Shown piece after piece: positions 23,526-40,526 of a stretch of DNA of 64,000 nucleotides; position 1 is the stretch's first letter, and every line of letters begins with the position of its first letter. This DNA is from Candidatus Omnitrophota bacterium (GTDB lineage Bacteria > Omnitrophota > Gorgyraeia > Duberdicusellales > 4484-171): the NCBI GenBank assembly GCA_021735655.1, contig JAIPGM010000008.1, forward strand, positions 1-64,000. The letters run 5' to 3'. A model generated the notes under the pieces. It had not been told where the DNA came from. It ran no database searches and saw only the letters and a list, made by a program, of their open reading frames with translations. A program made the position numbers and the translations under genes.

Positions 23526-23714
23526 ATGAGTGGTGAAATTTTAACTGTTGGCGATGTCTGTGAATATTTGAAGATACCACGTTCAACCCTTTATAAGCTT
23601 TCTAAAGATAAGATTATCCCGGCTTTTAGGGTTGGTCGGCACTGGCGTTTTCAAAAGGAAAAGATTGAAGCCTGGTTGGAGGGGCAAACTAGCGAAAAGG
23701 TTAGTCGGCAATAA
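23526..23714 (+). CDS. Excisionase/MerR-superfamily helix-turn-helix DNA-binding protein
   Basis: LTVGDVCEYLKIPRSTLYKL..IPAFRVGRHWRFQKEKIEAWL matches excisionase-family HTH (TIGR01764-like); first gene of the lipid operon. Confidence 0.65.
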   Translation: MSGEILTVGDVCEYLKIPRSTLYKLSKDKIIPAFRVGRHWRFQKEKIEAWLEGQTSEKVSRQ

Positions 23715-23715
23715 T

Positions 23716-24312
23716 ATGTGGTATTGGGTTTTTAAGCATATATTTTGGATTTTATTCACTGTCCTTTTTAGGCTTAAGGTAGAGGGTTTAGATAATTTAC
23801 CGCAAAAGACAAATTTTATCTTAGCGGCTAATCATGCTAGTTTTTTAGACCCGCCTTGTATTATGGCTGGTATCCCAATGAGGGTTTATCCGATTGCCGC
23901 AAGACATCTTTATAAGGTAGGATTAGTTGGCTGGTTTTTAAGAAAAATAAATGCTTTTTCAGCCGGAGGATCATCAAGCCTGGCAGTTAAACTGTTAATG
24001 GAAGGCAAGAATGTTGGTTTATCTCCAGAAGGAAAAATCAGTCTTAATGGTCAACTTAATGAATTTAGAAGAGGGGTAGCTTTGTTAGCGGCAAAAACCG
24101 GTCGGCCGGTTGTTCCTTGCGCTATTTTTGGTGCTTACGAGGCTCTTCCTTATGAAGCTAAATTTCCTAAATTATTTTCACCAATTAAACTAAAGATAGG
24201 CAAACCAGTGTATCTTTTAAAGGAGTTTGATGATGAGATTGACCCTATCTATCTGCGCGAAGGTACTTTTAAGATTCAAAATACAATAAAGGAGTTACTT
24301 AATGAAGAATAA
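23716..24312 (+). CDS. 1-acyl-sn-glycerol-3-phosphate acyltransferase-family (PlsC-like) acyltransferase
   Basis: NHASFLDP (HxxxxD) and SPEGKIS motifs; start taken at the internal Met right after the upstream stop (track ORF 23632 overlaps the HTH gene). Confidence 0.7.
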   Translation: MWYWVFKHIFWILFTVLFRLKVEGLDNLPQKTNFILAANHASFLDPPCIMAGIPMRVYPIAARHLYKVGLVGWFLRKINAFSAGGSSSLAVKLLMEGKNVGLSPEGKISLNGQLNEFRRGVALLAAKTGRPVVPCAIFGAYEALPYEAKFPKLFSPIKLKIGKPVYLLKEFDDEIDPIYLREGTFKIQNTIKELLNEE

Positions 24313-25888: not shown

Positions 25889-25898
25889 GCTAAAGTTT

Positions 25899-26897
25899 AT
25901 GAAAGTGCTAGTTACCGGAGCTGACGGGTTTTTAGGTTCAAATCTGATTAGGCATTTGCTTGTTGCCGGGCATAAGGTTAAGGCCTTGATCCACAGTGAT
26001 AAGGATTACGATGCTTTAAGCGGGCTTAAGGTTGATAAGTTAAAAGGCGACGTCCTTAGTCCAAAGTCGATTGATAAGGCAATGGCTGGGATTGATGCTG
26101 TATTCCATCTAGCCTCTTTATATAAGTTTTATCCTTGGTGGCAGAAAAAGGCTGGTCAGATCTATAAAGTAAATGTTCAAGGCACAAGAAATGTTTTAAA
26201 AGCCGCCAAAAAAAACAATATCAAACGTTTTATTTTTACCAGCAGTATTGCTTCTTTAGGTAAACAGCTTGGTAAAAAACCGAGCGACGAAACAACCGTG
26301 CTTAATCTAAAAAGTAGAATTAGTCACTATGCCCGTTCAAAAGTATTAGCTGAAAATGAAGTTTTGAGTTTTGTCAGACAAGGCTTACCGGCAATAATTT
26401 TAAATCCAGCAGCTTTAATCGGTGAACGTGATTTTAAGCCAACCCCAACCGGTCAGATGATTATAGATTTTTTAAATCATAAGCTTCCGGTGACTTTTAA
26501 TGGGATGATACCGTTGGCTGATGTTGATGATGTAGCTAGGGCTCACCTGGTAGCTCTTGATAGGGGTAGAGTCGGTGAGCGTTATATTCTTTGTAATAAT
26601 CGGGCCTATCCTTTGAAGGAGTTATTTTATTTAGTTGAGCAAATATCCGGAGTTTCTGCTCCGCGGTTAAAGATACCTTATCCTTTGTTAATGAGTTTTC
26701 TTTATTTTGATGAGGTTTTTTCTTATTTTTTAAAGAAAAGACCGCTTTTATCGAGCTCGGCGGCAAGATTTTTCCGCCGGGCAACGGTATTTGATAATAG
26801 TAAGGCAGCCAGGGAGTTGAGTTATGCGACCACTCCGATTACTACTAGTTTAGAAAAGGCCGTTAACTGGTATAAGGAAAATAGCTATGTCCAATAA
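25899..26897 (+). CDS. NAD(P)-dependent epimerase/dehydratase-family (extended SDR, 3beta-HSD-like) reductase
   Basis: VLVTGADGFLGSNL Rossmann motif, YxxSK (YARSK) active site. Confidence 0.7.
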   Translation: MKVLVTGADGFLGSNLIRHLLVAGHKVKALIHSDKDYDALSGLKVDKLKGDVLSPKSIDKAMAGIDAVFHLASLYKFYPWWQKKAGQIYKVNVQGTRNVLKAAKKNNIKRFIFTSSIASLGKQLGKKPSDETTVLNLKSRISHYARSKVLAENEVLSFVRQGLPAIILNPAALIGERDFKPTPTGQMIIDFLNHKLPVTFNGMIPLADVDDVARAHLVALDRGRVGERYILCNNRAYPLKELFYLVEQISGVSAPRLKIPYPLLMSFLYFDEVFSYFLKKRPLLSSSAARFFRRATVFDNSKAARELSYATTPITTSLEKAVNWYKENSYVQ

Positions 26898-26959
26898 TAA
26901 CAATTATAAGCTATCAAATATTTATTGGCTTAGCTTGATCAAGTAGTTAAATAAGCAAT

Positions 26960-29083
26960 ATGTTAGATCTGATTTTTAATCCAGCTAATTATTATTGGAA
27001 TCCTCATGCGGTTCTCTATCATTTAGTAGGAATTCTTACTTTGCTTGAGGGCATTTTTATTTTTAGTCAGAATCGTAAATCCTTAGTAAATTTAGCCTAT
27101 GGCCTTAGTTGTTTATCAGTTGCTCTTTGGCTTACCGGAACCGGCATGGCTTTAAACAGTAAACTTGAACTAACTGCTTTAATTTGGACCAGGACTTATT
27201 TCTTTTTAGGAGTAATATTTAATACTCCTTCGATATACTTTTTTTCAGTTGCTTGGCAGAAATCGCTTTTTCCTCAAGAGGAAAACAAAAAAATAAAAAT
27301 AGTAATTTTTAACTTTCTTTGCGGTTTGGGGTTCTATATTTTTTGTCTTAACTCTAATCTTTTTATCCAGGGTTTCTGGAATCATTCCTGGGGGTTTTAC
27401 CCTAAGGCCGGCAGTCTTTATTTTATTTTTGTCGGTTGGGTTTATGCTTTGATGATGCTTATGTTGTTTAATTTCATCCAGGTTTACCGCAAGGGGGGTG
27501 ATCCGGTTATAAAAAAACAAGCTAAATTAATGATTATTGCTTTTTCGATTGGCTACCTGGGCACAGCCGAGTTTTTGATGGACTATGGATTTACTCTTTA
27601 TTTTTTAGCCTTTATTCCGGTGTTTATCTGTATTACTATTGTCGGTTACAGCGTTATTCGCTATCGGACTATGGATATTGAAACGGTAATCCATAAGACC
27701 GCTTTATGGATTTTTTCTTATTCGCTTATTGCGGCTCCGATATTTTTTCTCTATAACGGGCTGTCTGAGAAGATTGAGAGTTCTAACTTATTGTTGTTTA
27801 TTTTTTGGACAGCTAGTTTTTTGGCGGTTACCGTTTATTTACGGTTAATTCAACCAAAAATTGATCATTTTTTCCAAAGACGTAAAGCTAATTTGGAAGA
27901 CATTTCTAGTGAATTTACCAAAAATCTTGTCCATTTAAAGGGTCTTAATCAGCTAATCGAACGCATCAAAGAAACAATCACTAATGCTTTTTATCCGCAG
28001 AATATCGATATTTTAATCTATGGCCAGGATGATGAAAGATATCAAGATGAGCCATTTTTGCTTTGGTTGGTTAAGAATGACAAAATTGCCTATCGTGATT
28101 TTATTGAAATCGATCCGGCTTATTCAGCAATTCGTAGCGATGCCAGAAAATATTTCGACTCAGTAGCCGCAGCGGTAGTTGTTCCTTTAGTTTTAAATGA
28201 ACGTCTTTTGGGGGTAATTAATTTAACCAGAAAATCAAACCTAAAACGCTACGCTGCCGTAGATTTTAATTTTTTACGTCTGCTGAAAAACCAGTCGGCA
28301 ATTGCTATATCTAACTCTTTAGTTTATGAGAACATTGAAGAGCAGGTTAAAAGGCGGACTGAGGAGTTAGTTGAGGTGCAGAAGCAATTGATTCAGGCTG
28401 GAAAATTAGCTACTGTTGGTACTTTGGCTGGAGGAGTAGCTCATGAGATAAATAATCCTTTGGCGGCAATTTTAACTAATGCTCAGATGTTGCTTATGTC
28501 ACCGGATGAGCTCAATGTTGAGGAGGCCCGTGAATCATTAGAGTTAATCGAAGAGGCGACCAAGCGTTGTCGAACCATCGTCAGAAAATTAATGACCTAT
28601 GCTCGAAAACCAGTAGAATCAACAACAATTTCTAAAATAAACCTTATTGATGTTGTCAATAAGGTGAAAGCCTTCCTTGATTATCAGTTTAAGCAGGAAA
28701 ATATTCAAATAGTTGTCGTTGCTGAAACTAGCAACTATCCGGTAGTCGGCAATCAGAATGAGTTAGAGCAGGTGGTAACCAATATAGTTTTAAATGCCAA
28801 GGATGCTACGAAGCGGGTTAAAAAAAGCGGCATTATAGATATATCGTTAATGAGCAATGATGGTTGGATAAGGCTGGATATCAAAGATCAAGGCTCTGGC
28901 ATTTCAAAAGACCATGCTTTAAAGATTTTTGACCCCTTTTTTACTACTAAAGACGTAGGAAAGGGGTTAGGTTTGGGTCTTTCAATATCACAGTCGATCA
29001 TTGAGAAGTATAAGGGTTCGATTTTTTTTCATTCTCAGGAAGGTGAGGGCACTATTTTTACCATAAATCTGCCTGAGGCCTGA
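26960..29083 (+). CDS. Multi-TM sensor histidine kinase (7-8 TM, GAF-like, HisKA, HATPase_c)
   Basis: N-terminal ~300 aa polytopic; H-box GGVAHEINNPL; N, G1, G2 boxes (NAKDAT, DQGSGI, GLGLGLSIS). Confidence 0.8.
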   Translation: MLDLIFNPANYYWNPHAVLYHLVGILTLLEGIFIFSQNRKSLVNLAYGLSCLSVALWLTGTGMALNSKLELTALIWTRTYFFLGVIFNTPSIYFFSVAWQKSLFPQEENKKIKIVIFNFLCGLGFYIFCLNSNLFIQGFWNHSWGFYPKAGSLYFIFVGWVYALMMLMLFNFIQVYRKGGDPVIKKQAKLMIIAFSIGYLGTAEFLMDYGFTLYFLAFIPVFICITIVGYSVIRYRTMDIETVIHKTALWIFSYSLIAAPIFFLYNGLSEKIESSNLLLFIFWTASFLAVTVYLRLIQPKIDHFFQRRKANLEDISSEFTKNLVHLKGLNQLIERIKETITNAFYPQNIDILIYGQDDERYQDEPFLLWLVKNDKIAYRDFIEIDPAYSAIRSDARKYFDSVAAAVVVPLVLNERLLGVINLTRKSNLKRYAAVDFNFLRLLKNQSAIAISNSLVYENIEEQVKRRTEELVEVQKQLIQAGKLATVGTLAGGVAHEINNPLAAILTNAQMLLMSPDELNVEEARESLELIEEATKRCRTIVRKLMTYARKPVESTTISKINLIDVVNKVKAFLDYQFKQENIQIVVVAETSNYPVVGNQNELEQVVTNIVLNAKDATKRVKKSGIIDISLMSNDGWIRLDIKDQGSGISKDHALKIFDPFFTTKDVGKGLGLGLSISQSIIEKYKGSIFFHSQEGEGTIFTINLPEA

Positions 29084-29144
29084 TAGGCTTGGTCTTTATG
29101 CGGTTTTAGTATATAATGTATAGATTATAGAAAAAGGTAATAAA

Positions 29145-29591
29145 ATGAATGATTTTTGGGATGTAAATAAAATAAAGAAGGTTTTACCTAAAGACTATCC
29201 TTTTCTTTTTATCGATCGGGTAGTTGAGATTGATTTGGTTGAAAAAAGGATAAAAGGCCTAAAAAATATAACCGTTAATGAGCATTTCTTTTCAAACCAC
29301 TTTCCTGGTAAACCAATTATACCAGGGGCAATTCTGGTTGAGGCAGCCTATCAGGCGAGTATTATTCTTTGTGTTGCTCTTGGTGAGGATAGCCAGTTTA
29401 AGATCGATTACTGTTTAGATAAGGTAGAGGCCAGTTTTTTTAGTAAGGTTAGAGCCGGAGATCAACTTATTTTAGAGGCCAAAGCCGAGAAACTAACAGC
29501 TAAAACAGCAGCAGTCAGAGTGGTTGTTTCAGTAAGTGACAATAAGTGTGCCGAGTTAACTGTTTTTTTAAAGCTAAATAAAGGGGGCTAA
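29145..29591 (+). CDS. FabZ-like beta-hydroxyacyl-ACP dehydratase
   Basis: LPKDYPFLFIDRV...NEHFFSNHFPGKPIIPGAILVEA hotdog/FabZ signature. Confidence 0.8.
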   Translation: MNDFWDVNKIKKVLPKDYPFLFIDRVVEIDLVEKRIKGLKNITVNEHFFSNHFPGKPIIPGAILVEAAYQASIILCVALGEDSQFKIDYCLDKVEASFFSKVRAGDQLILEAKAEKLTAKTAAVRVVVSVSDNKCAELTVFLKLNKGG

Positions 29592-29592
29592 G

Positions 29593-29970
29593 ATGGTTAA
29601 AAGAATTTTAATTATTGAAGATGAACAGATAATAACTAAAAGTTTACAGCGTTTGCTAAAAAAAGAAGGTTATCAGGTAGAGATTTCTAATAACGGGGCA
29701 GATGCTCTTGAGAAAATAAAGGCTGGAGAGTTTAATTTAATAGTCAGCGACATTAGAATGCCAGATATGGATGGCATTGAGACAATTAAAGCTATTCGAA
29801 AGTCTCTCACCGAGCAGGGCAAGCCTTTGATTCCTGAGATATTAATTACCGGTTATGCTGATGAGTCTAAATATCAGGAAGCTTTGGAGCTAAAAGTTGC
29901 CGATTACCTCTATAAACCTTTTGACATTAAAGATTTCCTAGAGGCAGTTAGGAGAAATATCAATGCTTAA
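29593..29970 (+). CDS. Stand-alone CheY-like response regulator
   Basis: ILIIEDE, DIRMPDMDG, receiver fold, no output domain; overlaps fabG start. Confidence 0.8.
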   Translation: MVKRILIIEDEQIITKSLQRLLKKEGYQVEISNNGADALEKIKAGEFNLIVSDIRMPDMDGIETIKAIRKSLTEQGKPLIPEILITGYADESKYQEALELKVADYLYKPFDIKDFLEAVRRNINA

Positions 29971-30700
29971 AGGAAAAACTGCAATTATTAGCGGAGCCAG
30001 CCGTGGCATTGGCCGGGCTATTGCAATGAAATTAGCCACCGAAGGTGCAAATATATCTTTTAGTTATTTAAACAGCAAAGTTGCTGCTGATAAATTAGAA
30101 AATGAGATCAATTCGCTGGGTGTAAAAGCTAAGGGCTATCAATTAGATATAAAGGATTTTGACTCAGTAAGTAAGTGGGTCAGTGATACTAAGGAAAGTT
30201 TCGGTGGTTTAGACATCATAGTTAATAATGCCGGAATTATTATTGATAAAGCTCTGGCCTTGATGGAACACTCAGATTGGAAGAGTGTTTTAGATACTAA
30301 TTTAGGCGGTTTATTTAACTTAACCCGGGCAGCAATTATAACTTTAATAAAACAAAGGTCCGGTCAAATTATTAACATTACTTCGGTAACCGGAATGGTC
30401 GGGATGGCTCGTCAGACGAATTATGCGGCAACTAAGGCCGGAATCATCGGCTTTACCAAGTCTTTGGCCAGAGAAGTTGGTTCTTATAATATAAGAGTTA
30501 ATGCGATTGCTCCGGGCTTTATTGAAACTGATATGCTCAGCGGCCTAAAAGATAAATATCGAGAAGATGTCACTCAACAAATTCCTTTGCGGCGGTTTGG
30601 CAAGCCTGAAGAAGTCGCTGGTTTGGTAAGTTTTTTGGCTAGTGAAAAAGCAGACTATATTACCGGCCAGGTAATAGTTGTTGATGGCGGGATGACTTAA
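29963..30700 (+). CDS. fabG: 3-oxoacyl-ACP reductase (FabG-type SDR)
   Basis: TAIISGASRGIGRAIA, NNAG, YAATKAG (YxxxK) motifs. Confidence 0.85.
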   Translation: MLKGKTAIISGASRGIGRAIAMKLATEGANISFSYLNSKVAADKLENEINSLGVKAKGYQLDIKDFDSVSKWVSDTKESFGGLDIIVNNAGIIIDKALALMEHSDWKSVLDTNLGGLFNLTRAAIITLIKQRSGQIINITSVTGMVGMARQTNYAATKAGIIGFTKSLAREVGSYNIRVNAIAPGFIETDMLSGLKDKYREDVTQQIPLRRFGKPEEVAGLVSFLASEKADYITGQVIVVDGGMT

Positions 30701-30703
30701 TTT

Positions 30704-31936
30704 ATGGATAAAACTGTTGTTGTAACTGGAGTCGGCGTACTTTCTCCAAACGGGATTGGCAAAGCTGCTTTTTGGCAGGCCTTAAAAGATGGTAAGTCGG
30801 GAATTAAGCCGATTACTATTTTTAATCCTGGTTTTTTTAAGAGTAAACAAGCCGGAGAGATATCTGATTTTAAGGCTGAGGAGTTTTTAGGGACAAAAGG
30901 ACTTCAAAATACCGATCGAGCTACTAAATTAGTTTGTTCAGCCTCAAAGTTGGCCCTGGAGGATTCAGAGTTAAATATCACTGAGCGAAACACCGACAAT
31001 ATTGGAGTAGTTACCGGGACCACACTTTCATTATGGAATATTGCTGAATTGAGTCGGGAAATGGTTGAAGACGGCCCGCAATTTGTTACTGCCGGAATTT
31101 TTCCCGGAACTACCATAAATAGCGCATCGAGCCAGATATCAATTCGTCATAAGATTAAAGGTTTTAATACTACGATTTCAACCGGCTATACTGCGAGCCT
31201 AGATGCTCTTAAATATGCTACAAATTTCATTAAGCTTGGCCGAGCAAAGGCAGTTTTAGTCGCTGGAGTTGAAGGTTTAACTTTTGCCGGGTTTACTGGT
31301 TTTTATAAGATTGGTTTTTTAGCCGGCATAAAGGGGGAGGAAATATCCTGTCCTTTTGATAAAAGAAGGAATGGAATCGTTTTAGCTGAGGCAGCAGTAG
31401 TTTTAGTTGTTGAAGATGCTGAGCACGCTGAGGCCAGAGGAGCTAAGATTTATGCTGAGCTAGCTGCCATTGAGAATTCATTTGATGCTTTTCGGGCTGC
31501 TAAATATGAGCCTCAGGCTAGTGGTTTAAAAAGAACGATGCTTAAAGCTTTAAAGTCAGCTAAGCTGCATGGGGAAGATATTGATTATGTTTCTTCAGCG
31601 GCTAATTCAGTTCCTCAGCAGGATGCTTTAGAGACTATGGCAATAAAGGAAGTTTTTAATATTTATGCTGAGAAGACTCCGGTAAGCGCAATTAAGTCAA
31701 TGGTTGGTGAGTCGGTGAGTGCCGGAGGAATCATGCAACTGACAGCCGCTTTAGGTTCCCTTGAAGAAGGGTTTATCCCGCCGACAATAAATTATCGAGA
31801 AAAAGATCCTGAATGTGACCTTGACTACGTAGTTAATCAGGCTAGATCGCAAGAAGTAAACAATATATTAGTGAATAATTTTGGTCCTGGCGGCAATAAT
31901 GCCACGGTTGTCGTCAAAAAATACGGAGGTGTATAG
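30704..31936 (+). CDS. Ketosynthase-like protein lacking the catalytic Cys-His-His triad (chain-length-factor-like KS partner)
   Basis: Thiolase/KS fold throughout, but ISTGYTASL replaces the xTACSS Cys motif, SSAANSVPQ replaces HGTGT and KSMVGESVSAGG replaces GHxxGAAG. Confidence 0.7.
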   Translation: MDKTVVVTGVGVLSPNGIGKAAFWQALKDGKSGIKPITIFNPGFFKSKQAGEISDFKAEEFLGTKGLQNTDRATKLVCSASKLALEDSELNITERNTDNIGVVTGTTLSLWNIAELSREMVEDGPQFVTAGIFPGTTINSASSQISIRHKIKGFNTTISTGYTASLDALKYATNFIKLGRAKAVLVAGVEGLTFAGFTGFYKIGFLAGIKGEEISCPFDKRRNGIVLAEAAVVLVVEDAEHAEARGAKIYAELAAIENSFDAFRAAKYEPQASGLKRTMLKALKSAKLHGEDIDYVSSAANSVPQQDALETMAIKEVFNIYAEKTPVSAIKSMVGESVSAGGIMQLTAALGSLEEGFIPPTINYREKDPECDLDYVVNQARSQEVNNILVNNFGPGGNNATVVVKKYGGV

Positions 31937-32187
31937 TGGTACCCGAAGATTTAGGAAAACAAATTAAGGATATAGTCGCAAGAGTTATTGAAATTGAGCT
32001 TGATCAGGTTACTCCCGATGCTGACTTTATTAATGATTTGGGAGTAGATTCTTTGAAGGCAATTGAGATTACCGGAGCCATTGAGAAAGCCTTTCGGGTA
32101 GTTGTGCCGGAAGAAAAGATTCGTGATATTCGCACCCTTAACCAGGCGATCAGTTTAACTCAGCAGCTGCTCCAAGCAAAAGGATAA
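31936..32187 (+). CDS. Acyl carrier protein
   Basis: 83 aa, DLGVDSL phosphopantetheine-attachment motif. Confidence 0.75.
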   Translation: MVPEDLGKQIKDIVARVIEIELDQVTPDADFINDLGVDSLKAIEITGAIEKAFRVVVPEEKIRDIRTLNQAISLTQQLLQAKG

Positions 32188-32189
32188 GA

Positions 32190-32639
32190 TTGAAAATGAC
32201 TTGGGATAAAGAAAAAGTAAAGTCTATTCTGCCGCAAAGAGAACCTTTTTTATTTATTGATGAGGTAATTGAGGTAGATGAAGGTAAAAGAATAGTTGCT
32301 AAGAAGTATCTTGATCCTAAAGCTGATTTTTTCAAGGGGCATTTTCCCGGTAATCCGGTTATGCCTGGGGTTTTAACTATTGAAGCTATGGCTCAGGCGG
32401 CAATATTAGTTTATTCAACCGCAAAACCAGAAATAGCCAAGAAGAGGCCAGATTATTATTTTGGTAGCGTTAAGGCAAAGTTTAAATTGCCAGTTTTTCC
32501 TAATGAAACATTAATTTTAGAGGCCGAAATTATTAAAGTTACTGATTTTGGCGGAGTAGTAGATACAATTGCCAGAGTAAAAGATAAAGTAGTAGCTCAA
32601 GCAAGCAGTACTTTTGGGGTGAAGTTGAGAGATGAATAA
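32190..32639 (+). CDS. FabZ-like beta-hydroxyacyl-ACP dehydratase (second copy)
   Basis: LPQREPFLFIDEV...FFKGHFPGNPVMPGVLTIEAMAQ. Confidence 0.8.
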   Translation: MKMTWDKEKVKSILPQREPFLFIDEVIEVDEGKRIVAKKYLDPKADFFKGHFPGNPVMPGVLTIEAMAQAAILVYSTAKPEIAKKRPDYYFGSVKAKFKLPVFPNETLILEAEIIKVTDFGGVVDTIARVKDKVVAQASSTFGVKLRDE

Positions 32640-33852
32640 CGATAGACGAGTAGTGGTAACTGGTATTGGGGTAATCTCAGCAGTTGGTAATGGCAAAGAG
32701 ACTTTCTGGAAAGCAATCAAGGAGGGAAAGTCCGGAATAAGCGAAATTACTTCAATGGATACTTCAGTTTATAAGTGCCACTTAGGTGGTGAGGTGAAGG
32801 ATTTTAATCCTGAAGAGTTTATTCCTAAGCGGAGAATAAAATTTCTTGGGAGATCTTCTCAACTAGCCATAGCTGCATCAAGTCTCGCTTTAAAAGATGC
32901 TAAGCTTGACTATAAAAGCACTGAAAGAAAGGAAATGGGGGTTATTGTTGGGACAACTACTGGCGAACGACCCTTGGAGGAGCTTTTAGCCTCTTGGGCT
33001 AAGGGTGGCTTTAAAGATGTTGACCGGGCAAAAGTATTTCAAGCCACAGTGAATAATATTTCGGCTAATGTTGGAATAGAGTTTAAGGCTCGAGGGGTAA
33101 ATTATCTTATTCCTACGGCTTGCGCTGCCGGAAATTACGCAATCGGTTGTGGATTTGATTTAATTAGAAGTGGGGATTTAAACTTTGCTTTAGTTGGCGG
33201 AGCCGATGCTTTTTCTAAATTTGCTTTTACCGGGTTTCAAAGGATTTATGCTATGAGCCCTGACTTTATGCGTCCTTTTGATAAAAATAGAAGAGGGATG
33301 ATGCAGGGGGAAGGTTCGGGAATGCTTCTCCTAGAGTCTTACAAATCAGCTAAGAAAAGAGGTGCTGATATCTATGCTGAGGTTTTAGGCTATGGCTTAT
33401 CTTGTGATGCTTATCATGCGACAGCACCTGATCCAAAAGGAATAGCTAAAGTTATGGAGAAGGCCTTAGCTGAGACCGGCCTAACCTATAAAGATGTAGA
33501 TTATATTTGTGCTCATGGAACCGGAACCGGTCCAAATGATAAGGCCGAGTGCATAGGTATTAAGGCGGTTTTTAAAGAACGCTCTAAAGAGATTATGGTT
33601 AGTTCAATAAAATCTATGCTTGGTCATGCTATGGGGGCAGCTTCGGCAATTGAAGCAGCTGCTTGTTGCCTAGCGGTCAAAGATGATATCGCGCCGCCAA
33701 CCATAAACTATGAGACCCCTGATCCTGATTGTGACATAGATTGTGTCCCGAATAAAGCCAGAAAGGCAAAGATTAATGTAGCCCTTAATAATGGTTTTGC
33801 TTTTGGCGGTAACAATGCCTGCGTGGTTATTAAAAAAATAGAAGATGCCTAA
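32632..33852 (+). CDS. Beta-ketoacyl-ACP synthase II-type (FabF-like), catalytically intact
   Basis: PTACAAGNYAIG (Cys), CAHGTGTGPND (His), KSMLGHAMGAAS (His), C-terminal NGFAFGGNNA. Confidence 0.85.
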   Translation: MNNDRRVVVTGIGVISAVGNGKETFWKAIKEGKSGISEITSMDTSVYKCHLGGEVKDFNPEEFIPKRRIKFLGRSSQLAIAASSLALKDAKLDYKSTERKEMGVIVGTTTGERPLEELLASWAKGGFKDVDRAKVFQATVNNISANVGIEFKARGVNYLIPTACAAGNYAIGCGFDLIRSGDLNFALVGGADAFSKFAFTGFQRIYAMSPDFMRPFDKNRRGMMQGEGSGMLLLESYKSAKKRGADIYAEVLGYGLSCDAYHATAPDPKGIAKVMEKALAETGLTYKDVDYICAHGTGTGPNDKAECIGIKAVFKERSKEIMVSSIKSMLGHAMGAASAIEAAACCLAVKDDIAPPTINYETPDPDCDIDCVPNKARKAKINVALNNGFAFGGNNACVVIKKIEDA

Positions 33853-35326
33853 TAAATATGACGTTATAGTTATTGGCGCTGGGATCGGCGGATTAACTGC
33901 TGCTGCCATACTAGCCAGAAATGGCAAAAAGGTGTTGGTTTTGGAGAAGAATCCTATAGCCGGAGGTTATGCGGTTAATTTTAAGAGGGGTGAGTTTGAG
34001 TTTGATGCTTCTTTACATTTGCTAAACGGGTTTTTTCCTGGAAAACCAACTTATCACTTTTTGCAATTAGCCGGAATTGATAATAAAGTAACTTTTTTAA
34101 AACCCGAATATCTTTATCGTTCAGTTTTTCCGGATTACGATATCAGAGTGCCACAATGTGACCCTAAAGCCTATATTAATATTTTAGCTAAATATTTTCC
34201 TAAAGATAAGCCCAAGCTTGAAGAATTATTTAGTTTGATGTATCGTATATTTTGTCGAATTCAAGATATCGAAGGTGACAAAATATCACCGGCTGAGTTA
34301 ACTGGTTATATCGGTAAGACCCATCAAGATGTTTTAGATGAATTCAAAATTAGTAATCAGCTGGCCGCTTTAATATCACAAGTTTGGCCTTTTATTGGTA
34401 CCCCGCCGTCTCAGCTTCCTTTTTTAGTTTTTTTGTCATCTTTCAGTGATTTTATTTACAATGGTGGATATTATCCGAAAGGCGGCGGCCAAGCAATTTC
34501 AGATGCTTTGGTTGATGTAATTTGTGAGAACCAAGGAGAAGTTATTTTCAAAGAAAAGGTTAGCAAAATTCTTATCGAAGGTAATTCAGCGTATGGTTTA
34601 GTGGACCAATTCGGTAATGAGTTTTTTGCCAAAGAAATAATTTCAAACATTGATGCTAATTTTCTTTTCGGTGAGTTGATTGAAAATAAATATTTGCCTA
34701 GTGATTTTTTAGATAAAGTTTCTCGTTTTAAGCCATCAATTTCGGCTTTCCAGGTTTACTTAGGTTTAGATATCGAAGCAGGCAAACTCGCTATAAACGA
34801 CTATACTATATTTTCTAATCCTGACTATGACTTATCTAAACAATATCAAGAATCTTTGGTTAATAATGTTGAGGTGGTTCCTATAGAAATAAGTTTTCAT
34901 AACTCTCTGTTTGATTCTGGCTTTCCTAAATCAAGCACTTTGAGTATAGTTTCTTTGGCCGGCTATGATTTTTGGCAAAATCTATCAAAACAAGAATATG
35001 CGGTAAAAAAGAAAAAATTGGCCGATATTTTAATTAAGCGAGCTGAAGACTTTATTCCTGGTTTATCGGGAAGGATTAAATTGATTAATATAGCTACGCC
35101 AATTACTATGGAGCGTTATACCGGGAATTCAGCTGGTGCTATTTATGGTTGGAGCCAAACTATGGATCAATATGGTTCAAAGAGGATGCGGCAGAATACA
35201 CCAATTGATAATCTTTTTCTTGTTGGAGCCTGGACTAGACCAGCAGGAGGAGTTTCTGGGGCAATGCAATCCGGAGCAATGGTATCGAAAAAAATCCTAA
35301 TTAATGCAGCTAATGTCAAAAAATAA
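33845..35326 (+). CDS. FAD/NAD(P)-dependent oxidoreductase of the phytoene-desaturase (CrtI/amine-oxidase) family
   Basis: YDVIVIGAGIGGLTAAAILARNGKKVLVLEKN dinucleotide-binding motif, GGYA, C-terminal GAWTRPAGGVSGA. Confidence 0.7.
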   Translation: MPNKYDVIVIGAGIGGLTAAAILARNGKKVLVLEKNPIAGGYAVNFKRGEFEFDASLHLLNGFFPGKPTYHFLQLAGIDNKVTFLKPEYLYRSVFPDYDIRVPQCDPKAYINILAKYFPKDKPKLEELFSLMYRIFCRIQDIEGDKISPAELTGYIGKTHQDVLDEFKISNQLAALISQVWPFIGTPPSQLPFLVFLSSFSDFIYNGGYYPKGGGQAISDALVDVICENQGEVIFKEKVSKILIEGNSAYGLVDQFGNEFFAKEIISNIDANFLFGELIENKYLPSDFLDKVSRFKPSISAFQVYLGLDIEAGKLAINDYTIFSNPDYDLSKQYQESLVNNVEVVPIEISFHNSLFDSGFPKSSTLSIVSLAGYDFWQNLSKQEYAVKKKKLADILIKRAEDFIPGLSGRIKLINIATPITMERYTGNSAGAIYGWSQTMDQYGSKRMRQNTPIDNLFLVGAWTRPAGGVSGAMQSGAMVSKKILINAANVKK

Positions 35327-36623
35327 AAGAATTGTTGTTACTGGATTGGGTCCTTTGTCAGCCATTGGTATGGGCAAGGAGGCTTTATGGAAGTCTGTTT
35401 TAGCAGAAAAGACGGGATTGACTTTAGAAAAATACAGTATCAATGGTCAGGAATTGGGTGACTATTATGCCCATCGGATCAAAGATTTTGATATTAACGA
35501 TTTTAATATTGATAAAAATATTTTGGAAGATATTAAGGCTTGGAAAGAGCAAGCTAATCCCATCGATCTTTTTTATCTTTTGGCTGTAGTTAAGTTAGCT
35601 CTGAGTGATTCCAAAATAAACTATACTAATAGAGCTGAAACAGAAAGATTAGGGTTGATAGTAACGCATGAGAATCCTGGCCTAGACCAATTCTATGAAG
35701 AAGTCATAAACGAGTCTTATGATTTTCTAGTAAAGGGTAATAATAGTGTAATTTCTCGGAAGGATTATTTTCAAGAATTTTATCGAAAATTCGCCAAACG
35801 CGGTTACGAACTCCAGACTTTTATGCCGCTTTTTCATTTAGCTAAAGTTTTTAATATCCATAATTACTCTATATTCTTATGCAATGCTTGTGCTTCGGGT
35901 TTATTTGCCGTCGAGGCAGCCGCTGATATTATTAAAAGTGGTAAATGTAACACAGTTGTGGTTGCCGGGTCAGATTGTACCAGTATTTTTAAATATCTTT
36001 GGTTCAAAGGATTAGATATGTATGCTGAAGATGGTAAGATAAAGCCCTTTGCTAAAAATAGGAATGGTTTTGTTACTGGCGATGGTGGAGCTGGCATCGT
36101 ATTAGAAGATTTATATAGCGCGTTAGAAAGAGGCGCTCATATTTATGCTGAATATTTAGGAGGAGGATTTCATTTAGAGGGTTGGAAAGTTGCTATGCCG
36201 GAGATAAACGGTGATTCATACAAAAAAGCTATCATGCAATCTTTGCAAAGAAGTGATGTTCCAAAAGAGGCAATCGATTTACTTGTACCTCATGGCGTGG
36301 GAACTACGGCTGCCGATTATTATGAGGCAAAGGCTATTACGAGTATATTTGGTAAAAATTGTAAAAAACCTTTAATGGCAGCTTTGAAGCCTTATATCGG
36401 CCATAATTTGGGAAGCACAGCCCTATTGGAATTAGCAATTTCAATATTAGCTTTAGAGAATAATTATTTACCAAAAACACTCAATCTTACCGAAGTTGAT
36501 CCAAAATTAGGAGTTAATTTAGTGACTACTTCTAAAGCTTATGATATGCGAACATTGATGAAGACAGCTTGTGGATTTGCCGGTTACAATGGTTCAGTTA
36601 TTCTAAAAAAATATACTAAATGA
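35304..36623 (+). CDS. Third ketosynthase (divergent KS with intact Cys/His/His)
   Basis: CNACASGLFAV, VPHGVGTTAAD, YIGHNLGSTA motifs; longer N-terminal region than FabF. Confidence 0.7.
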   Translation: MQLMSKNKRIVVTGLGPLSAIGMGKEALWKSVLAEKTGLTLEKYSINGQELGDYYAHRIKDFDINDFNIDKNILEDIKAWKEQANPIDLFYLLAVVKLALSDSKINYTNRAETERLGLIVTHENPGLDQFYEEVINESYDFLVKGNNSVISRKDYFQEFYRKFAKRGYELQTFMPLFHLAKVFNIHNYSIFLCNACASGLFAVEAAADIIKSGKCNTVVVAGSDCTSIFKYLWFKGLDMYAEDGKIKPFAKNRNGFVTGDGGAGIVLEDLYSALERGAHIYAEYLGGGFHLEGWKVAMPEINGDSYKKAIMQSLQRSDVPKEAIDLLVPHGVGTTAADYYEAKAITSIFGKNCKKPLMAALKPYIGHNLGSTALLELAISILALENNYLPKTLNLTEVDPKLGVNLVTTSKAYDMRTLMKTACGFAGYNGSVILKKYTK

Positions 36624-38812
36624 TAGTTTTTAATCTTTTTACAATTTCAGGCTTACTAACTGGAATTACTTGCTCTTTCTTGGCGGTTATTTTACTTATT
36701 TTTGGTCGGGTAAAAGAAGTTAAGCTGACTCGTTTATGGATGATTTTCAACACTGTTGTTGCTCTTTGGGATTTTAGTTTATTTTTTATTGGTCAAGCGA
36801 CAAATAGTTTAGTTGCTTTTGATCGGTGGAGGCTAGCTCATGTACCGGGCTTACTTATAGCCCCGCTTTTTTTACATGTTATTTATGTGTTTTGTGGTAT
36901 TCAGCGACGTAAGTTTTTGGTTTTTTCCTATTTAGCCGCATTAACCTATATAGTTTTAGACTCTTTTAATTTATTAAGCTATACGACCCAATTAATTTTT
37001 GGGGCGTTTTACTATATTAAACCGATTGGTCCGCAATACACTGCATTTGCTACTCTTTGGCTTTATATCATTGCACACTCTTTGTTTGTTTTGTTTCGTT
37101 TCTATAGAACTGCTTCTGGCCATAAGAAAAACCAAGCTTTATATTTTTTAATTGTAATGCTAGTTGGATTTAGCGGGGGATCAACCCATTTTATTACCGC
37201 AATCGCTTTTTCTAAAGGTATTCAAATATATCCTTTTGGGCAATTAGGTGTAGCTTTGTATTGTATAGTAGCTACTTACGCTATCCTTAAATACCGCCTT
37301 ATGGATGTTAGAATATTTGTTTCCCGGGCCGCGGCTTTTCTCATTAGTTATCCTTTCTTTTTGAGTATTCCTTTTATTTTTGCTTATAGGACGCAAGTAG
37401 AGCTTCATTCTTTGATGGGTGCTAATTGGTGGCTTGTGCCGGCTGGTTTAATTATCTTTTTTTCCAGTTTATCACCGATAGCCTATAGCCAATTAAAAAT
37501 TAGGATGGAGGAAAAGCTTCTGGCGGATCAGAAGCGTTACCAAAAATTACTACTTCAGGCAGCAAGTGGTATGGCTACTGAGCATAATTTGAATAAACTT
37601 TCAAAACTCATTGTTTATATTGTTAAGCGGGCGGTAAAGGTAGAATTTGCGACTATTTTTATCGATGATAAAAATGATGGGGTTTACCGGATGAAAGCTT
37701 TTCGGGATACACAACGGGAAGCGCCATTTGCAAATGTGACCTTTCTTTATGAGCACTCTTTTATTAGATATCTAGCTAAGCATAGCGAACCTTGCATTTA
37801 TGAAGAGTTACCAGAAGAGATTAGGGCTTCTTTGGGGGCATTTTCTAGCGCAGCTTTAGTTATACCTTCAGCTGTTCAAGATGAGCTTTTAGGTTTTGTT
37901 ATTCTAGGGGCAAAGCTTAATAAACAACCCTATAGTGATGACGATGTAAATGTTTTTAAGATTCTTTCGCATCAAGCAGCCTTGGCTATTGAGAATAGTT
38001 TATTTCTAGAGGAAACTAAACAGGCACAGGAGAAGATATTTGCTGCCGAGAAGCTAGCTTCAATCGGTGGCATGGCTGACGGAGTGGCCCATCAGATTAA
38101 AAATCGTCTTAATCAATTTTCAGTAGCTAGTGGTGAGTTAAAGTATGAAATAAAAGATTATTTAGCCAAGCATCCGGCGATTACTAAAAATAATAAGGAT
38201 TTGAAGAAAACCCTTAAATATCTTACTGAAATAGCCGACTCTCTCATAAATAATGTAAAGCGTACTGATGGGATAGTTAAGGGAATCCTTAACTTTGCCC
38301 GAGTGGAAGAGACCAGCACTTTTTTCTCTCAGTTTTCTTTAAAAGAGGTAATTGATTTGTCTGCCGAACTATTAAAGATAAAACATGAGATTTTCGAAGC
38401 TCCTTTGGATATTAAGCTAGGTTCTTCAGATACTGTTTATGGTATAAAATCTCAAATTACCGAGGCGGTTTATAACTTATTAGATAATGCTTATGAAGCT
38501 ACTCAGGAGAAGAGAGCTCTCATGACCAAAGAAGGTAGGGATGGTTTTAATCCTCTAATTAAGATTAAGTTAACTCATAAGGCAGGCGTAAATTTGCTTG
38601 AAATTTCCGACAATGGTATTGGGATGAGAGATGAAGATAAAGCGAAAGTGTTTGCACCCTTTTTTACTACCAAATCGTCTTATAAATCAGGAACTGGAAT
38701 CGGGGTGTATGTTGTTAAGCGTATGATTGAAGAGAATCATAAGGGCAAGGTTCACTTTAGTTCCACTTACATGGAGGGAACTAAATTTTTTGTAGAATTG
38801 CCAAAAAAATGA
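36620..38812 (+). CDS. Multi-TM sensor histidine kinase (paralog of 26960..29083)
   Basis: Polytopic N-terminus, GAF-like middle, H-box GVAHQIKNRL, HATPase_c G-boxes (DNGIGM, GTGIGV). Confidence 0.8.
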   Translation: MIVFNLFTISGLLTGITCSFLAVILLIFGRVKEVKLTRLWMIFNTVVALWDFSLFFIGQATNSLVAFDRWRLAHVPGLLIAPLFLHVIYVFCGIQRRKFLVFSYLAALTYIVLDSFNLLSYTTQLIFGAFYYIKPIGPQYTAFATLWLYIIAHSLFVLFRFYRTASGHKKNQALYFLIVMLVGFSGGSTHFITAIAFSKGIQIYPFGQLGVALYCIVATYAILKYRLMDVRIFVSRAAAFLISYPFFLSIPFIFAYRTQVELHSLMGANWWLVPAGLIIFFSSLSPIAYSQLKIRMEEKLLADQKRYQKLLLQAASGMATEHNLNKLSKLIVYIVKRAVKVEFATIFIDDKNDGVYRMKAFRDTQREAPFANVTFLYEHSFIRYLAKHSEPCIYEELPEEIRASLGAFSSAALVIPSAVQDELLGFVILGAKLNKQPYSDDDVNVFKILSHQAALAIENSLFLEETKQAQEKIFAAEKLASIGGMADGVAHQIKNRLNQFSVASGELKYEIKDYLAKHPAITKNNKDLKKTLKYLTEIADSLINNVKRTDGIVKGILNFARVEETSTFFSQFSLKEVIDLSAELLKIKHEIFEAPLDIKLGSSDTVYGIKSQITEAVYNLLDNAYEATQEKRALMTKEGRDGFNPLIKIKLTHKAGVNLLEISDNGIGMRDEDKAKVFAPFFTTKSSYKSGTGIGVYVVKRMIEENHKGKVHFSSTYMEGTKFFVELPKK

Positions 38813-38949
38813 TAAGATAAATGGTATATCCCTCGCGCCTAAATATTCGAAAAATTTCTACGATATTTTTCGAAGGCGCTTCGGGATCAATTCTAATGAG
38901 ACTGTAATTTTTCTCAATCAATGAGAAAAATTACATAGTCGAATTATCA

Positions 38950-39327
38950 TTGAGGAGGTACAATATGAATAAAGTTTTAATAGTTGATGATGAAGTCGAA
39001 ATTACCGAGTTTCTATGCAATTTTTTGAATCGTTTTGATATAGTTAATGAAAGAGCTTCTGATGCCAAAACTGCTTTAGATAAGTTTAACAAATTAAAGC
39101 CTAACTGGGTTTTATTGGACATAAAGATGCCGGGCATGGATGGGTTTGAGTTGTTGGCAGAGTTTAAAAAAATAAACTCAAACATAAAGGCAATGATGAT
39201 TACTGGAAAAGATGACAAGGAATCGCAAGATCGCGCTAAAAAGTTAGGAGCCCTAGATTACATTTTTAAGCCTTTGGATTTAGATGAATTACATCAGAAA
39301 ATTAAAACTCATATTCTTAAAAAATAA
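38950..39327 (+). CDS. Stand-alone CheY-like response regulator
   Basis: VLIVDDE, LLDIKMPGMDG, receiver domain only. Confidence 0.8.
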   Translation: MRRYNMNKVLIVDDEVEITEFLCNFLNRFDIVNERASDAKTALDKFNKLKPNWVLLDIKMPGMDGFELLAEFKKINSNIKAMMITGKDDKESQDRAKKLGALDYIFKPLDLDELHQKIKTHILKK

Positions 39328-39338
39328 TTTAGAATAAG

Positions 39339-40526
39339 ATGCCGAAAAAAAAGAAACCTGACTATGGAAAAGGCTTAGAACAAGCTGCTAAGCAGATGAT
39401 TCTAATCCGCCGGGTGGATACTCTGATTAAGCTCATTTTACGAAGCATTATCAAAAATATAAAAGTTGAGCATGCTGGCCTTCTTTTGTATGATAAGTCA
39501 AAAGATGCTTATATAGTTACTGTTTCTAGGGGGAAGGGCGGAATAAAGATACCGGCCGGCCTTACTAAGATAAGCAAAGGTAATGCATTGGTCAGATACT
39601 TTACTGATAAAAAACTAAGAATTTTTGGTGAGCAACCCCTTATTTTGGAAAAAATAAGTGCTTATCTTAATTCTGAAAGGCCTAAAGGTACTAAAAATTT
39701 AAGAATTTTTTTAAGGGACGTAATCTTTCAGCTCTCACTTTATAATGCTAGAGCTTGCATTGCCGGGTTTTTTAGAGAAGAGTTAATATTTATTCTTTTT
39801 TTAGGTCGAAAGATTAATCTCAAACGATTTAATCAAGACGAGTTAGGATTTTTATCAGTTTTAAGTTCAGATGCAGTAATGGCTATTCAGAATGCCTGGT
39901 ACTTTCAGGATTTAGATAAACAGCTTCACAAAAACAAGAATTTATTTTTACAGACTGTTATGGCTTTAGCCACAGCGATTGAAGCTAAGGATAAATATAC
40001 TTCCGGTCATACCGAGCGGGTATCGCACTACTCTTTGCTTATAGCTCAAGAGATAAAAGCAGTGCGCAGTAATGCCCAAAAAGATTGGGATAGATTTTCA
40101 GAGGATTTGAGAATAGCCTCATTACTTCACGATATTGGTAAAATTGGCCTTCGCGAAGGAGTACTCAATAAGGAAGGTATTTTAACTGACGAGGAAAGAA
40201 GCGAGATGCAACGGCATCCTTTAGTTGGGTCGTCAATATTGAATCAAGTTGATGAATTTCAAGATCCTATTTTGGGGGTGAAGTATCATCATGAGCGATA
40301 CGATGGCAAGGGCTATCCTGAGGGTTTAAAGGGAAACAAAATACCTTTGATAGCTCAGATAATTGCCGTTGCTGATACTTATGACGCTATGACTTCCGAT
40401 CGTCCTTACAGAAGAGGGATGTCTAAGAAGCAGGCTATACAGGAGATTCGCAAGAACAAGGCTAAGCAATTTTCTCCTTTGGTGGTCGATGCTTTTTTAA
40501 AACTTTACAAAGAGGGAAAGATATAG
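39339..40526 (+). CDS. GAF-domain HD-GYP phosphodiesterase (c-di-GMP)
   Basis: HD motif LLHDIGKIGL, HHERYDGKGYPEGL (HD-GYP signature), N-terminal GAF-like region. Confidence 0.75.
   Translation: MPKKKKPDYGKGLEQAAKQMILIRRVDTLIKLILRSIIKNIKVEHAGLLLYDKSKDAYIVTVSRGKGGIKIPAGLTKISKGNALVRYFTDKKLRIFGEQPLILEKISAYLNSERPKGTKNLRIFLRDVIFQLSLYNARACIAGFFREELIFILFLGRKINLKRFNQDELGFLSVLSSDAVMAIQNAWYFQDLDKQLHKNKNLFLQTVMALATAIEAKDKYTSGHTERVSHYSLLIAQEIKAVRSNAQKDWDRFSEDLRIASLLHDIGKIGLREGVLNKEGILTDEERSEMQRHPLVGSSILNQVDEFQDPILGVKYHHERYDGKGYPEGLKGNKIPLIAQIIAVADTYDAMTSDRPYRRGMSKKQAIQEIRKNKAKQFSPLVVDAFLKLYKEGKI

Follow-up and report, generated by a model that had tools for sequence, protein, structure and literature searches.

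A signalling-plus-lipid-synthesis island conserved across Candidatus Omnitrophota and its proposed wiring to lipid enzymes

We analysed 64,000 nucleotides of a Candidatus Omnitrophota contig (JAIPGM010000008.1, positions 1 to 64,000; this whole stretch is called the window), in which two sensor histidine kinases, HK1 and HK2, and two receiver-only response regulators, RR1 and RR2, are encoded among enzymes of lipid synthesis. Open reading frames (ORFs) were listed and scanned against Pfam and NCBIfam, and the region was compared with related loci. We found with high confidence that it is one copy of a signalling-plus-lipid-synthesis island conserved across Candidatus Omnitrophota. That the signalling proteins are wired to the lipid enzymes is a proposal we hold with moderate confidence from comparison of sequences. 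The whole picture, a conserved island plus a wiring of kinases, receivers and cyclic di-GMP (c-di-GMP) to the lipid enzymes, is in our estimate slightly favoured.

Gene order in the window and in related loci

The operon comprises 17 genes, all on the forward strand, that run from a gene for a small HTH_17 DNA-binding protein to one for a GAF-HD-GYP protein (23526-40526). Intergenic distances range from -23 to +62 nt, with the sole exception of a 152-nt gap before RR2, in agreement with the initial annotation, which had placed the kinase and receiver genes inside a biosynthetic operon. The RR1 gene starts 1 nt past the gene for dehydratase 1 and shares 8 nt with the FabG gene, and the start of HK2 overlaps the stop of KS3, a ketosynthase (KS) gene, by 4 nt. 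The kinases had also been described as flanking the biosynthetic core. The KS and acyl carrier protein (ACP) set does lie between them, but an acyltransferase, a reductase and a short-chain dehydrogenase/reductase (SDR) are located upstream of HK1.

A protein identical to HK1 is on record from a Candidatus Omnitrophica metagenome-assembled genome (69.9-kb contig). More than 100 full-length relatives of HK1 were found at 45-64% identity (~50%), and those with a named source come nearly all from Omnitrophica/Omnitrophota. When a full-length HK1 alignment was used to query genome contigs, it caught the generic H-box and G2-box of unrelated kinases from many phyla, and the only relative recovered was L003 (loci are designated by L numbers). 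A scan of metagenome contigs with an N-terminal-only HK1 alignment led to 80 additional loci, and the ORFs of metagenome loci were labelled by phmmer with the window proteins. The counts given here refer to 60 non-redundant loci with an HK1 orthologue, with the evaluable loci as denominators. A reductase was encoded no more than three genes upstream of the HK1 orthologue in 43 of 51 loci, a receiver no more than two genes downstream in 31 of 48, and a second large kinase within 9 kb in 21 of 30. Gene order is thus conserved in relatives; had no related genome kept it, the initial annotation would have failed by its own standard. Downstream genes included an S-adenosylmethionine (SAM) methyltransferase (14/30 loci) and fatty-acid-synthase-like genes (10/30 loci), and at least 12 of the 60 loci, plus L001, L166 and L168, begin with an HTH_17 gene.

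Gene tables of long contigs show the HK1 orthologue directly after the reductase, often with overlapping stop and start codons. An acyltransferase precedes the reductase in all of them except L083. With the same exception, HK1 is followed by a receiver, variable enzyme genes and a second HisKA_7TM kinase. Past the second kinase stand a receiver, a receiver plus GAF-HD-GYP, or a fusion of both domains, REC::HD-GYP (REC denotes a receiver domain and double colons a single polypeptide). The variant seen in the window, with genes for a KS/chain-length-factor (CLF) pair, ketoreductase, dehydratases, ACP and a CrtI-family enzyme between RR1 and HK2, is also present in L089, L100 and L127.

Could generic two-component genes simply have come to lie amid lipid genes, with no functional link between them? 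The only point in favour of such chance neighbours is that two-component genes are common. Gene order is conserved in dozens of independent contigs, start and stop codons overlap between enzyme and signalling genes, and signalling domains have been fused to pathway enzymes several times independently. Because these synteny and fusion data contradict chance adjacency, we regard it as highly improbable.

Domain fusions and candidate outputs of the receivers

The evidence for wiring comes from fusions of signalling domains to pathway proteins in sister genomes. In L001, a single ORF encodes a receiver followed by a complete ketosynthase (REC::KS). A database search yielded 45 clusters of such fusions (~534 residues, 59-100% identical), and D12, D13, D57, T87 and K109 (CheY numbering) are kept in all of their receivers. 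PilZ::KS fusions form 10 clusters of ~570 residues with a KS of the same type as in REC::KS; they carry the RRxxxR motif, and most also have NxSxxG. Among the 55 fused ketosynthases of both kinds, the catalytic Cys and His340 are invariant and His303 is present in 54. L168 encodes both a free RR1-type receiver and REC::KS. An N-terminal PilZ domain is also found in methyltransferase fusions of more than 420 residues that keep RxxxR and (D/N)xSxxG (L001, L088, L110 and L130), with longer forms in L162 and L165.

Other fusions involve the HD-GYP and HTH_17 proteins. Two tandem copies of REC::HD-GYP stand past the second kinase in L084/L098, and L166/L167 (from GCA_054772775.1 and a Logan assembly) have the fusion at this place too. 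L166 is a compact locus of six genes, encoding HTH_17, PilZ::KS, ACP, a reductase, a HisKA_7TM kinase and REC::HD-GYP, and on paper it would form a closed circuit from kinase to phosphodiesterase to c-di-GMP to synthase. The L166/L167 reductase has 379 residues and no SRPBCC domain, and the kinase (751 residues) is 25% identical to HK1 and to HK2. An HTH_17::REC fusion of 194 residues, a rare response regulator, is encoded in L097 (19204-19788). Its receiver is RR1-type (118 bits against RR1, 64 against RR2), and its HTH_17 matches the small HTH_17 that heads the island.

These fusions could be sorted by their receivers. In BLAST comparisons, the receivers of REC::KS score higher to RR1 than to RR2. 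Those of REC::HD-GYP score higher to RR2, as do free receivers beside HD-GYP genes. An RR1-type receiver follows HK1, and the one after HK2 is mostly RR2-type. The HD-GYP domain of the window is 47-53% identical to the REC::HD-GYP domains of L084/L098 and L166/L167, and 47-59% identical to HD-GYP in fusions and beside free receivers generally. A GGDEF-HD-GYP paralogue in the window (52927-54489) is only 38-43% identical to the fusion-type domains. Cumulatively, the fusions point to distinct partners, with RR1-type receivers going with ketosynthase (and once with HTH_17) and RR2-type receivers with HD-GYP.

The HD-GYP protein itself (39339-40526, + strand) matched HD_5 (PF13487) at 121.9 bits against a cut-off of 27.2 and shows 'LLHDIGK' and 'GKGYPEG' motifs in translation, so that by family criteria it is a predicted c-di-GMP phosphodiesterase. 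Its N-terminal 195 residues gave no Pfam match. They matched the GAF profile of the locus kinases with 99.6% probability (E = 5.6e-25), and weakly the solved GAF domains of DevS, DosT and PtsP. Judged by these profiles, the protein shares its GAF subtype with both kinases. An RpfG-type regulator, with REC and HD-GYP on one polypeptide, was considered for the window and rejected, as the two are separate genes, the HD-GYP protein has GAF at its N-terminus, and the NF053512 score was 134.7 bits against 400.

We propose that the kinases sense a membrane-lipid or lipid-intermediate signal via their module of nine transmembrane (TM) helices plus GAF. Lipid sensing is proposed because this module always adjoins lipid enzymes and in L117 shares an ORF with the SDR and a domain termed U511, and because the HD-GYP protein bears the same GAF subtype. 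HK2 would phosphorylate RR2, which would act on the neighbouring HD-GYP enzyme, much as the receiver domain of an RpfG-type REC::HD-GYP protein acts on its own HD-GYP, and set c-di-GMP, so that HK2, RR2 and HD-GYP would form a split RpfG-type regulator. HK1 would phosphorylate RR1, which would contact the synthase enzymes protein to protein, and c-di-GMP would feed back on the pathway through PilZ domains. The steps that follow sensing are suggested by the REC::HD-GYP, REC::KS, PilZ::KS and PilZ::methyltransferase fusions of sister genomes. As no enzyme of the operon carries PilZ, c-di-GMP feedback in the window would have to go through free PilZ proteins, for example those encoded at 6170-6550 and 10376-10774. 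Both of these are single-domain PilZ proteins, and the gene of one lies directly 3' of a trehalose-synthase-like GT4 gene (8931-10370).

A further reading is that a dedicated Omnitrophota ketosynthase, and hence the synthesis of a specialised membrane lipid, is gated at the protein level by phosphorylation plus c-di-GMP. The phosphorylation input would come from the lipid-sensing nine-TM GAF kinase via a free or KS-fused receiver. The c-di-GMP input would act through PilZ on the ketosynthase or methyltransferase, with the c-di-GMP level set by the second kinase-receiver pair and HD-GYP. With its two inputs taken jointly, this reading is tentative.

A protein-level target had also been favoured in the initial annotation. 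The fusions of REC and PilZ to ketosynthase and of PilZ to methyltransferase speak for it, but the HTH_17 gene at the operon head keeps a transcriptional route under consideration. In such a route the receivers, notably RR1, would act via HTH_17 as a split response regulator, and it would mainly be transcription of the operon, not the enzymes directly, that is set. That HTH_17 is a conserved first gene, that the receiver of the L097 HTH_17::REC fusion is RR1-type, and that in L110 a second HTH_17 gene stands directly before an RR1-type receiver, after HK2, all agree with this. However, one HTH_17::REC fusion stands against 45 REC::KS clusters, the L097 fusion is at the locus edge, away from the RR1 position, and a transcriptional route leaves the PilZ fusions to KS and methyltransferase unexplained. 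We consider it unlikely, and it may coexist with a protein-level route.

The GAF-HD-GYP enzyme had been named as a plausible target of both receivers, and in the strict form of this idea c-di-GMP would be the sole output. The RR2-type half of it is favoured by comparison, in that REC::HD-GYP fusions occur at the same position, but the other half is not supported, as RR1-type receivers go with KS. Convergence of both receivers would fit the best NCBIfam match of RR1, which is a receiver of a REC-HD-GYP family, and the two tandem REC::HD-GYP genes past the second kinase of L084. Against it, the fusions observed for RR1-type receivers are with KS (45 clusters) and with HTH_17, none with HD-GYP, and in most loci that have both HK1 and RR1 an HD-GYP gene is missing within 10 kb. 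We therefore think it improbable that c-di-GMP is the only output.

Several points weigh against the wiring that we propose. All of the evidence for the mechanism is comparative. The fusions come from other genomes, and the KS proteins of the window carry neither REC nor PilZ and share just 38-43% identity with the family of fused ketosynthases. Only 7 of the 30 evaluable loci have an HD-GYP gene in the 10 kb downstream, indicating that it is a frequent partner and not a universal one. The operon is without a diguanylate cyclase, the nearest in the window being the GGDEF-HD-GYP gene. The second kinase is of at least two types among the loci and not one orthologous group, and the receiver after it is RR1-type in L001 and L120. 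The REC-HD-GYP family whose receiver RR1 matches best (NosR family, 90.8 bits) is not among the top 25 NCBIfam matches of RR2. In HK2, a Gln replaces the acidic residue beside the phospho-His, which may weaken HisKA autokinase activity. Finally, the L097 HTH_17::REC fusion and the conserved HTH_17 gene hint at a possible transcriptional route.

Kinases, receivers, enzymes and boundaries of the operon

HK1 (26960-29083, + strand; 707 residues) and HK2 (36620-38812, + strand; 730 residues) share an architecture of nine TM helices, GAF and kinase core. In Pfam scans, HK1 matched HATPase_c (81.9 bits), HisKA (51.9 bits) and, marginally, GAF_3, the last at 28.0 bits as an isolated region (cut-off 27). 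Its N-terminus scanned alone matched HisKA_7TM (PF16927) at residues 22-240 (41.8 bits, E = 1.4e-10; gathering cut-off 28.6), and many HK1 relatives bear a precomputed PF16927 match. HisKA_7TM is a named, functionally uncharacterised sensor domain that appears only in domain censuses (PMC5847659). The initial annotation had suggested 7TMR-DISM_7TM, MASE or 5TM-5TMR_LYT for this region. None of the three gave a Pfam match at E up to 10, and HisKA_7TM takes their place. Membership of the NCBIfam family MASE3_PAS_HK was likewise rejected for HK1 (80.9 bits against a cut-off of 560, with the kinase core driving the match). A Foldseek search of PDB with the full HK1 model returned only kinase catalytic cores and nothing on the membrane domain.

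HK2 matched HATPase_c (72.9 bits), GAF_3, GAF_2 and GAF, with its isolated GAF region scoring 33.3 bits for GAF_3 and 32.8 bits for GAF_2. Its N-terminus gave no HisKA_7TM match by itself, but seven of eight HK2 orthologues do match (best E 8.1e-17). BLASTP aligned HK1 with HK2 at 25% identity over residues 110-706 (~600 residues that include TM helices 4-9; E = 2e-38), and profile-profile comparison of the N-terminal membrane regions gave 99.9% probability (E = 4e-36). The ORFs, Pfam, BLASTP and profiles thus agree with what had been annotated of the kinases, namely their lengths and coordinates, their shared GAF and kinase-core architecture, and their paralogy as judged by sequence.

The two kinases were compared at the H-box. 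HK1 has H-E-I-N-N-P, and His495 and the G-boxes are invariant across the HK1 family alignment. HK2 has no Pfam HisKA match; its phospho-acceptor His aligns with the HK1 H-box, and its translation shows the N, G1, F and G2 boxes. The HK2 H-box (~residue 491) reads H-Q-I-K-N-R, with Gln at the acidic position beside the phospho-His. HK2-type kinases keep H-Q-(I/V)-(K/N)-N-R as against the usual H-E/D-x-x-N/T-P, and the H-Q pair is kept in the HK2 orthologues of L001, L085, L091, L095, L096, L102, L110, L127, L130 and L133. Elsewhere the second kinase is of a different type, with a classical H-E-(I/V)-N-N-(P/R)-L.

Where 7-8 TM helices had been annotated, a hydropathy scan and an AlphaFold2 model gave nine, of which the HisKA_7TM region accounts for seven. 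An 18-sequence alignment was the input for the HK1 model, whose mean pLDDT is 73.5 (80-90 over TM1-6). The invariant W144-G145-x-Y147-P148 (W-G-x-Y-P) lies in a beta-hairpin formed by residues 136-150. With nine helices ahead of a kinase in the cytoplasm, this hairpin and the N-terminus are probably outward-facing under the positive-inside rule. The same rule would place on the cytoplasmic side the charged loops at about 36-42, 100-112 and 176-187, as well as the invariant I-E-T-x-x-H (240-245) and Q-P-x-x-D-x-x-F (298-305). As HK1 orthologues have the reductase as a near neighbour in the loci counted above (43/51) and once share an ORF with lipid enzymes, these data suggest that HisKA_7TM may sense a lipid. 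At E <= 1e-10, the HK1-type sensor module had 1330 relatives among 1.84 billion cluster representatives, indicating that the kinase type is widespread and that specificity lies in the island.

RR1 (29593-29970, + strand; 125 residues) and RR2 (38965-39327, + strand; 120 residues) each contain Response_reg as their sole domain (97.8 and 96.7 bits), so that both are receiver-only regulators as annotated. Both keep E/D12, D13, D57, T87 and K109 (CheY numbering), and they are 29% identical to each other. The likeliest start of RR2 is the ATG at 38965, behind a GAGGAGG ribosome-binding site. The best 120 relatives of RR1 all have 115-140 residues and 58-100% identity, with Response_reg as the only domain family recorded. 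A role as chemotaxis CheY (NF007901) was rejected, since RR1 scored 60.4 bits against a cut-off of 189 and no che genes are nearby; 'CheY' describes the fold only. A third receiver-only protein is encoded in the window at 6600-6995.

Upstream of HK1, all on the + strand, the HTH_17 protein (23526-23714; 62 residues) was identified by homology to the HTH_17 gene of L084 (40% identity, E = 2e-14), which is itself a PF12728 match at 66.8 bits. A PlsC/Aas-like acyltransferase follows at 23716-24312 (Pfam Acyltransferase, 78.7 bits). Its longest ORF opens at TTG 23632, and the likelier start is ATG 23716, just past the HTH_17 stop. Among NCBIfam models it scores best with the acyltransferase part of acyl-[ACP]--phospholipid O-acyltransferase, and an NHxxxxD motif is visible. 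The SRPBCC-fused, acyl-ACP-reductase-like thioester reductase ('AAR', 24302-25888) combines Polyketide_cyc with a Shikimate_DH-type NAD fold. It scored 172.9 bits for TIGR04058 AcACP_reductase and 182 bits for the PigE N-terminus, both under cut-off, and appears akin to cyanobacterial acyl-ACP reductase and the PigE N-terminus. The HpnA-like NAD-dependent SDR ('Epim', 25899-26897) matched Pfam Epimerase (138.9 bits) and TIGR03466 HpnA (324.7 bits, slightly under the 367.65 cut-off). The thioester reductase, the HpnA-like SDR and the Aas-like acyltransferase are the core enzymes phylum-wide.

In many Omnitrophota, U511, a domain of about 510 residues with an invariant H-x3-D-G, is encoded between SDR and HK1, frequently on one polypeptide with the SDR. 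Examples, all outside the window, are in L085 (8465-10000), L083 (497-3076) and L117 (7355-12202), and in L117 a single ORF of 1615 residues joins SDR, U511 and HK1, a single observation. U511 gave zero matches in Pfam, NCBIfam and PDB sequences. It could be an unrecognised acyltransferase, and the H-x3-D-G motif raises the suspicion of a wax-synthase or condensation type.

The enzymes between HK1 and HK2 are likewise encoded on the + strand. They begin with a FabZ-like 3-hydroxyacyl-ACP dehydratase (dehydratase 1, 29145-29591; Pfam FabA 79 bits, TIGR01750 fabZ 112 bits and under cut-off) and, past RR1, a FabG-like ketoreductase (29963-30700; adh_short_C2 240 bits). KS1 (30704-31936) has the N- and C-terminal ketoacyl-synt domains and a chain-length-factor-like ketosynthase fold; aligned to E. 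coli FabF with the register checked, its Cys-His-His positions are Tyr, Ala and Glu. Next come the ACP (31936-32187; PP-binding 54.9 bits) and FabZ-like dehydratase 2 (32190-32639; Pfam FabA 93 bits, fabZ 121 bits, with weaker ApeI-like and ApeP-like Pfam matches). KS2 (32632-33852) is a predicted active FabF-like ketosynthase with Cys-His-His intact, matching NF005589 (PRK07314.1, beta-ketoacyl-ACP synthase II subfamily) at 424.6 bits, above the cut-off of 387. A CrtI-family flavin desaturase/isomerase-like enzyme (33845-35326; Amino_oxidase match, TIGR02734 crtI_fam 125 bits and under cut-off) and KS3 (35304-36623), a divergent ketosynthase that keeps the Cys-His-His triad, complete the set. 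Because KS1 has lost the triad and KS2 has kept it, the two look like a KS/chain-length-factor pair.

Family scans found no enoyl reductase in the operon. This, together with a ketoreductase, two FabZ-like dehydratases and a CrtI-family flavoenzyme, suggests that the product chain is unsaturated or polyene-like. What the enzymes make is probably an unsaturated acyl chain of an unusual kind, which leaves as an aldehyde or alcohol or is moved onto a lysophospholipid. In L084 and L168, the downstream neighbours include genes for a monogalactosyldiacylglycerol (MGDG)-synthase-like protein, an LpxL-like acyltransferase and GT2 proteins, consistent with membrane-lipid or glycolipid metabolism.

The two strongest terminator-like hairpins on the + strand, both consensus matches only, lie at 23220-23237, before HTH_17, and at 40554-40575. 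The latter has 9 pairs and a T-run, starts 28 nt past the HD-GYP stop and probably marks the operon end; the former probably terminates the unit of an upstream LOG-family gene (22373-23083). A scan for promoters gave 47 matches against a shuffled expectation of 50.7, which is not above chance. Within the HK2-RR2 gap lies a perfect 13-bp inverted repeat, GTAATTTTTCTCA and TGAGAAAAATTAC with a 5-nt spacer (38904-38934), of which the window has no second exact copy. Further copies that would mark it as an operator were not found inside the operon at 0-1 mismatch, and the count at 2 mismatches was not above chance. The 152-nt gap may mark a separate unit of RR2 and HD-GYP, and the repeat could be an operator for that unit or an RNA hairpin.

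Some flanking features were also recorded. A 99-residue ORF (23088-23387) without a family match contains the hairpin at 23220-23237 and may not be a gene. Farther upstream, a 1068-residue ORF (14158-17364) has zero Pfam matches, and after it come genes for an alginate-export-like outer-membrane porin (17762-19144) and a TPR plus Wza-like polysaccharide exporter (19274-21169). On the other side, a large serine recombinase (Resolvase, Recombinase and Zn_ribbon_recom; 40541-42109, - strand) abuts the operon end. At 44000-48000, GC content is low (0.31-0.32) and GC skew is reversed, and this stretch beside the recombinase may be an integrated mobile element.

Related systems and implications for Omnitrophota

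The Xanthomonas Rpf system has an HD-GYP enzyme under the control of a REC domain, and its fatty-acid signal synthase, RpfF, is bound by the RpfC receiver domain (PMC3749722). By analogy, Rpf appears to be the closest known system, with the same logic but different domains and enzymes. In both, a polytopic kinase, a receiver with its known or presumed HD-GYP target and fatty-acid-modifying enzymes are encoded together, and sister loci of the island have true REC::HD-GYP fusions. By contrast, receiver and HD-GYP are separate proteins in the window and the HD-GYP carries GAF. The window encodes two kinase-receiver pairs, and its kinases are non-hybrid HisKA_7TM-GAF proteins, unlike the REC-HPt arrangement of Rpf. 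In place of the Rpf crotonase it has a type-II KS/CLF synthase along with a thioester reductase and an acyltransferase, and within the island family PilZ and REC are fused to ketosynthase.

We also asked whether the island could be an Rpf/DSF-like cassette. The kinases would then sense a diffusible signal derived from a fatty acid, whether unsaturated acid, aldehyde or alcohol, and relay it through a receiver to HD-GYP and c-di-GMP, and a receiver would restrain the synthase as the RpfC receiver restrains RpfF. The component types are those of Rpf, with a polytopic kinase, REC and HD-GYP clustered with fatty-acid enzymes (PMC3749722). A small unsaturated product would be in keeping with FabZ-like dehydratases and a thioester reductase where no enoyl reductase is encoded. 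However, the most conserved partners, an Aas/PlsC-like acyltransferase and the SRPBCC reductase, point to a membrane lipid, as do the MGDG-synthase-like and LpxL-like neighbours in L084 and L168. The operon has no RpfF-type crotonase, and its kinases are not of the hybrid REC-HPt kind. Taken as a whole, such a cassette seems quite unlikely, though a little less so than convergence of both receivers on HD-GYP.

Three other systems resemble the island in part. DesK of Bacillus subtilis is a polytopic kinase without a large extracytoplasmic domain that is thought to read membrane state and, with DesR, controls a desaturase. DesK has five TM helices, no GAF and a HisKA_3-type core, and DesR is a DNA-binding transcription regulator. 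The DesK/DesR system has no c-di-GMP link, and its genes are not embedded among synthase genes. PrsK resembles the island kinases in its many TM helices, GAF and kinase core, and residues 18-728 of HK2 align to positions 8-679 of the 679 in the PrsK model (TIGR02916). Membership was rejected, with HK1 at 107 and HK2 at 102.2 bits against a cut-off of 300. The context is also wrong, as Pfam scans found no exosortase and no sigma-54 regulator in the operon. The partners here are receiver-only and not sigma-54 regulators of the PrsR type, and the surroundings are lipid genes instead of an exosortase/PEP-CTERM context.

In the myxobacterial elb ether-lipid operon, ElbD contains FAR-like reductase, ACP and AGPAT-like acyltransferase domains, and ElbE and ElbA are NAD-dependent epimerase-family proteins (PMC9131029). 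Both thus bring together acyl-thioester reductase, AGPAT/PlsC-like acyltransferase, epimerase-family SDR and ACP, a likeness drawn at the level of enzyme classes. The island proteins, however, are separate and belong to other families (an AAR/PigE-like reductase with SRPBCC), and elb has no embedded kinases, receivers or HD-GYP. The comparison with elb may serve as a lead on the type of lipid only.

We found no description of the island, REC::KS or PilZ::KS in the literature searched, whose coverage was incomplete, so that this is weak evidence of novelty. Nor did the literature on HisKA_7TM and on Omnitrophota kinases and lipids, again with incomplete coverage, yield an account of such a system. 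Two-component systems and c-di-GMP are usually tied to transcription, motility and exopolysaccharide, and in the literature searched no output was described in which either acts directly on an enzyme that builds lipid chains. The signalling parts of the island are known, but its output, a condensing enzyme of lipid synthesis, appears to be new, and the arrangement appears phylum-wide.

If a ketosynthase is indeed gated by both inputs, it would be the first two-component plus c-di-GMP control of a fatty-acid/polyketide condensing enzyme, and receiver and PilZ domains would each gain an output of a new class. REC::KS, PilZ::KS and PilZ::methyltransferase are single polypeptides that can be assayed without growing the organism, and the island to which they belong is conserved over a large, almost wholly uncultivated phylum.

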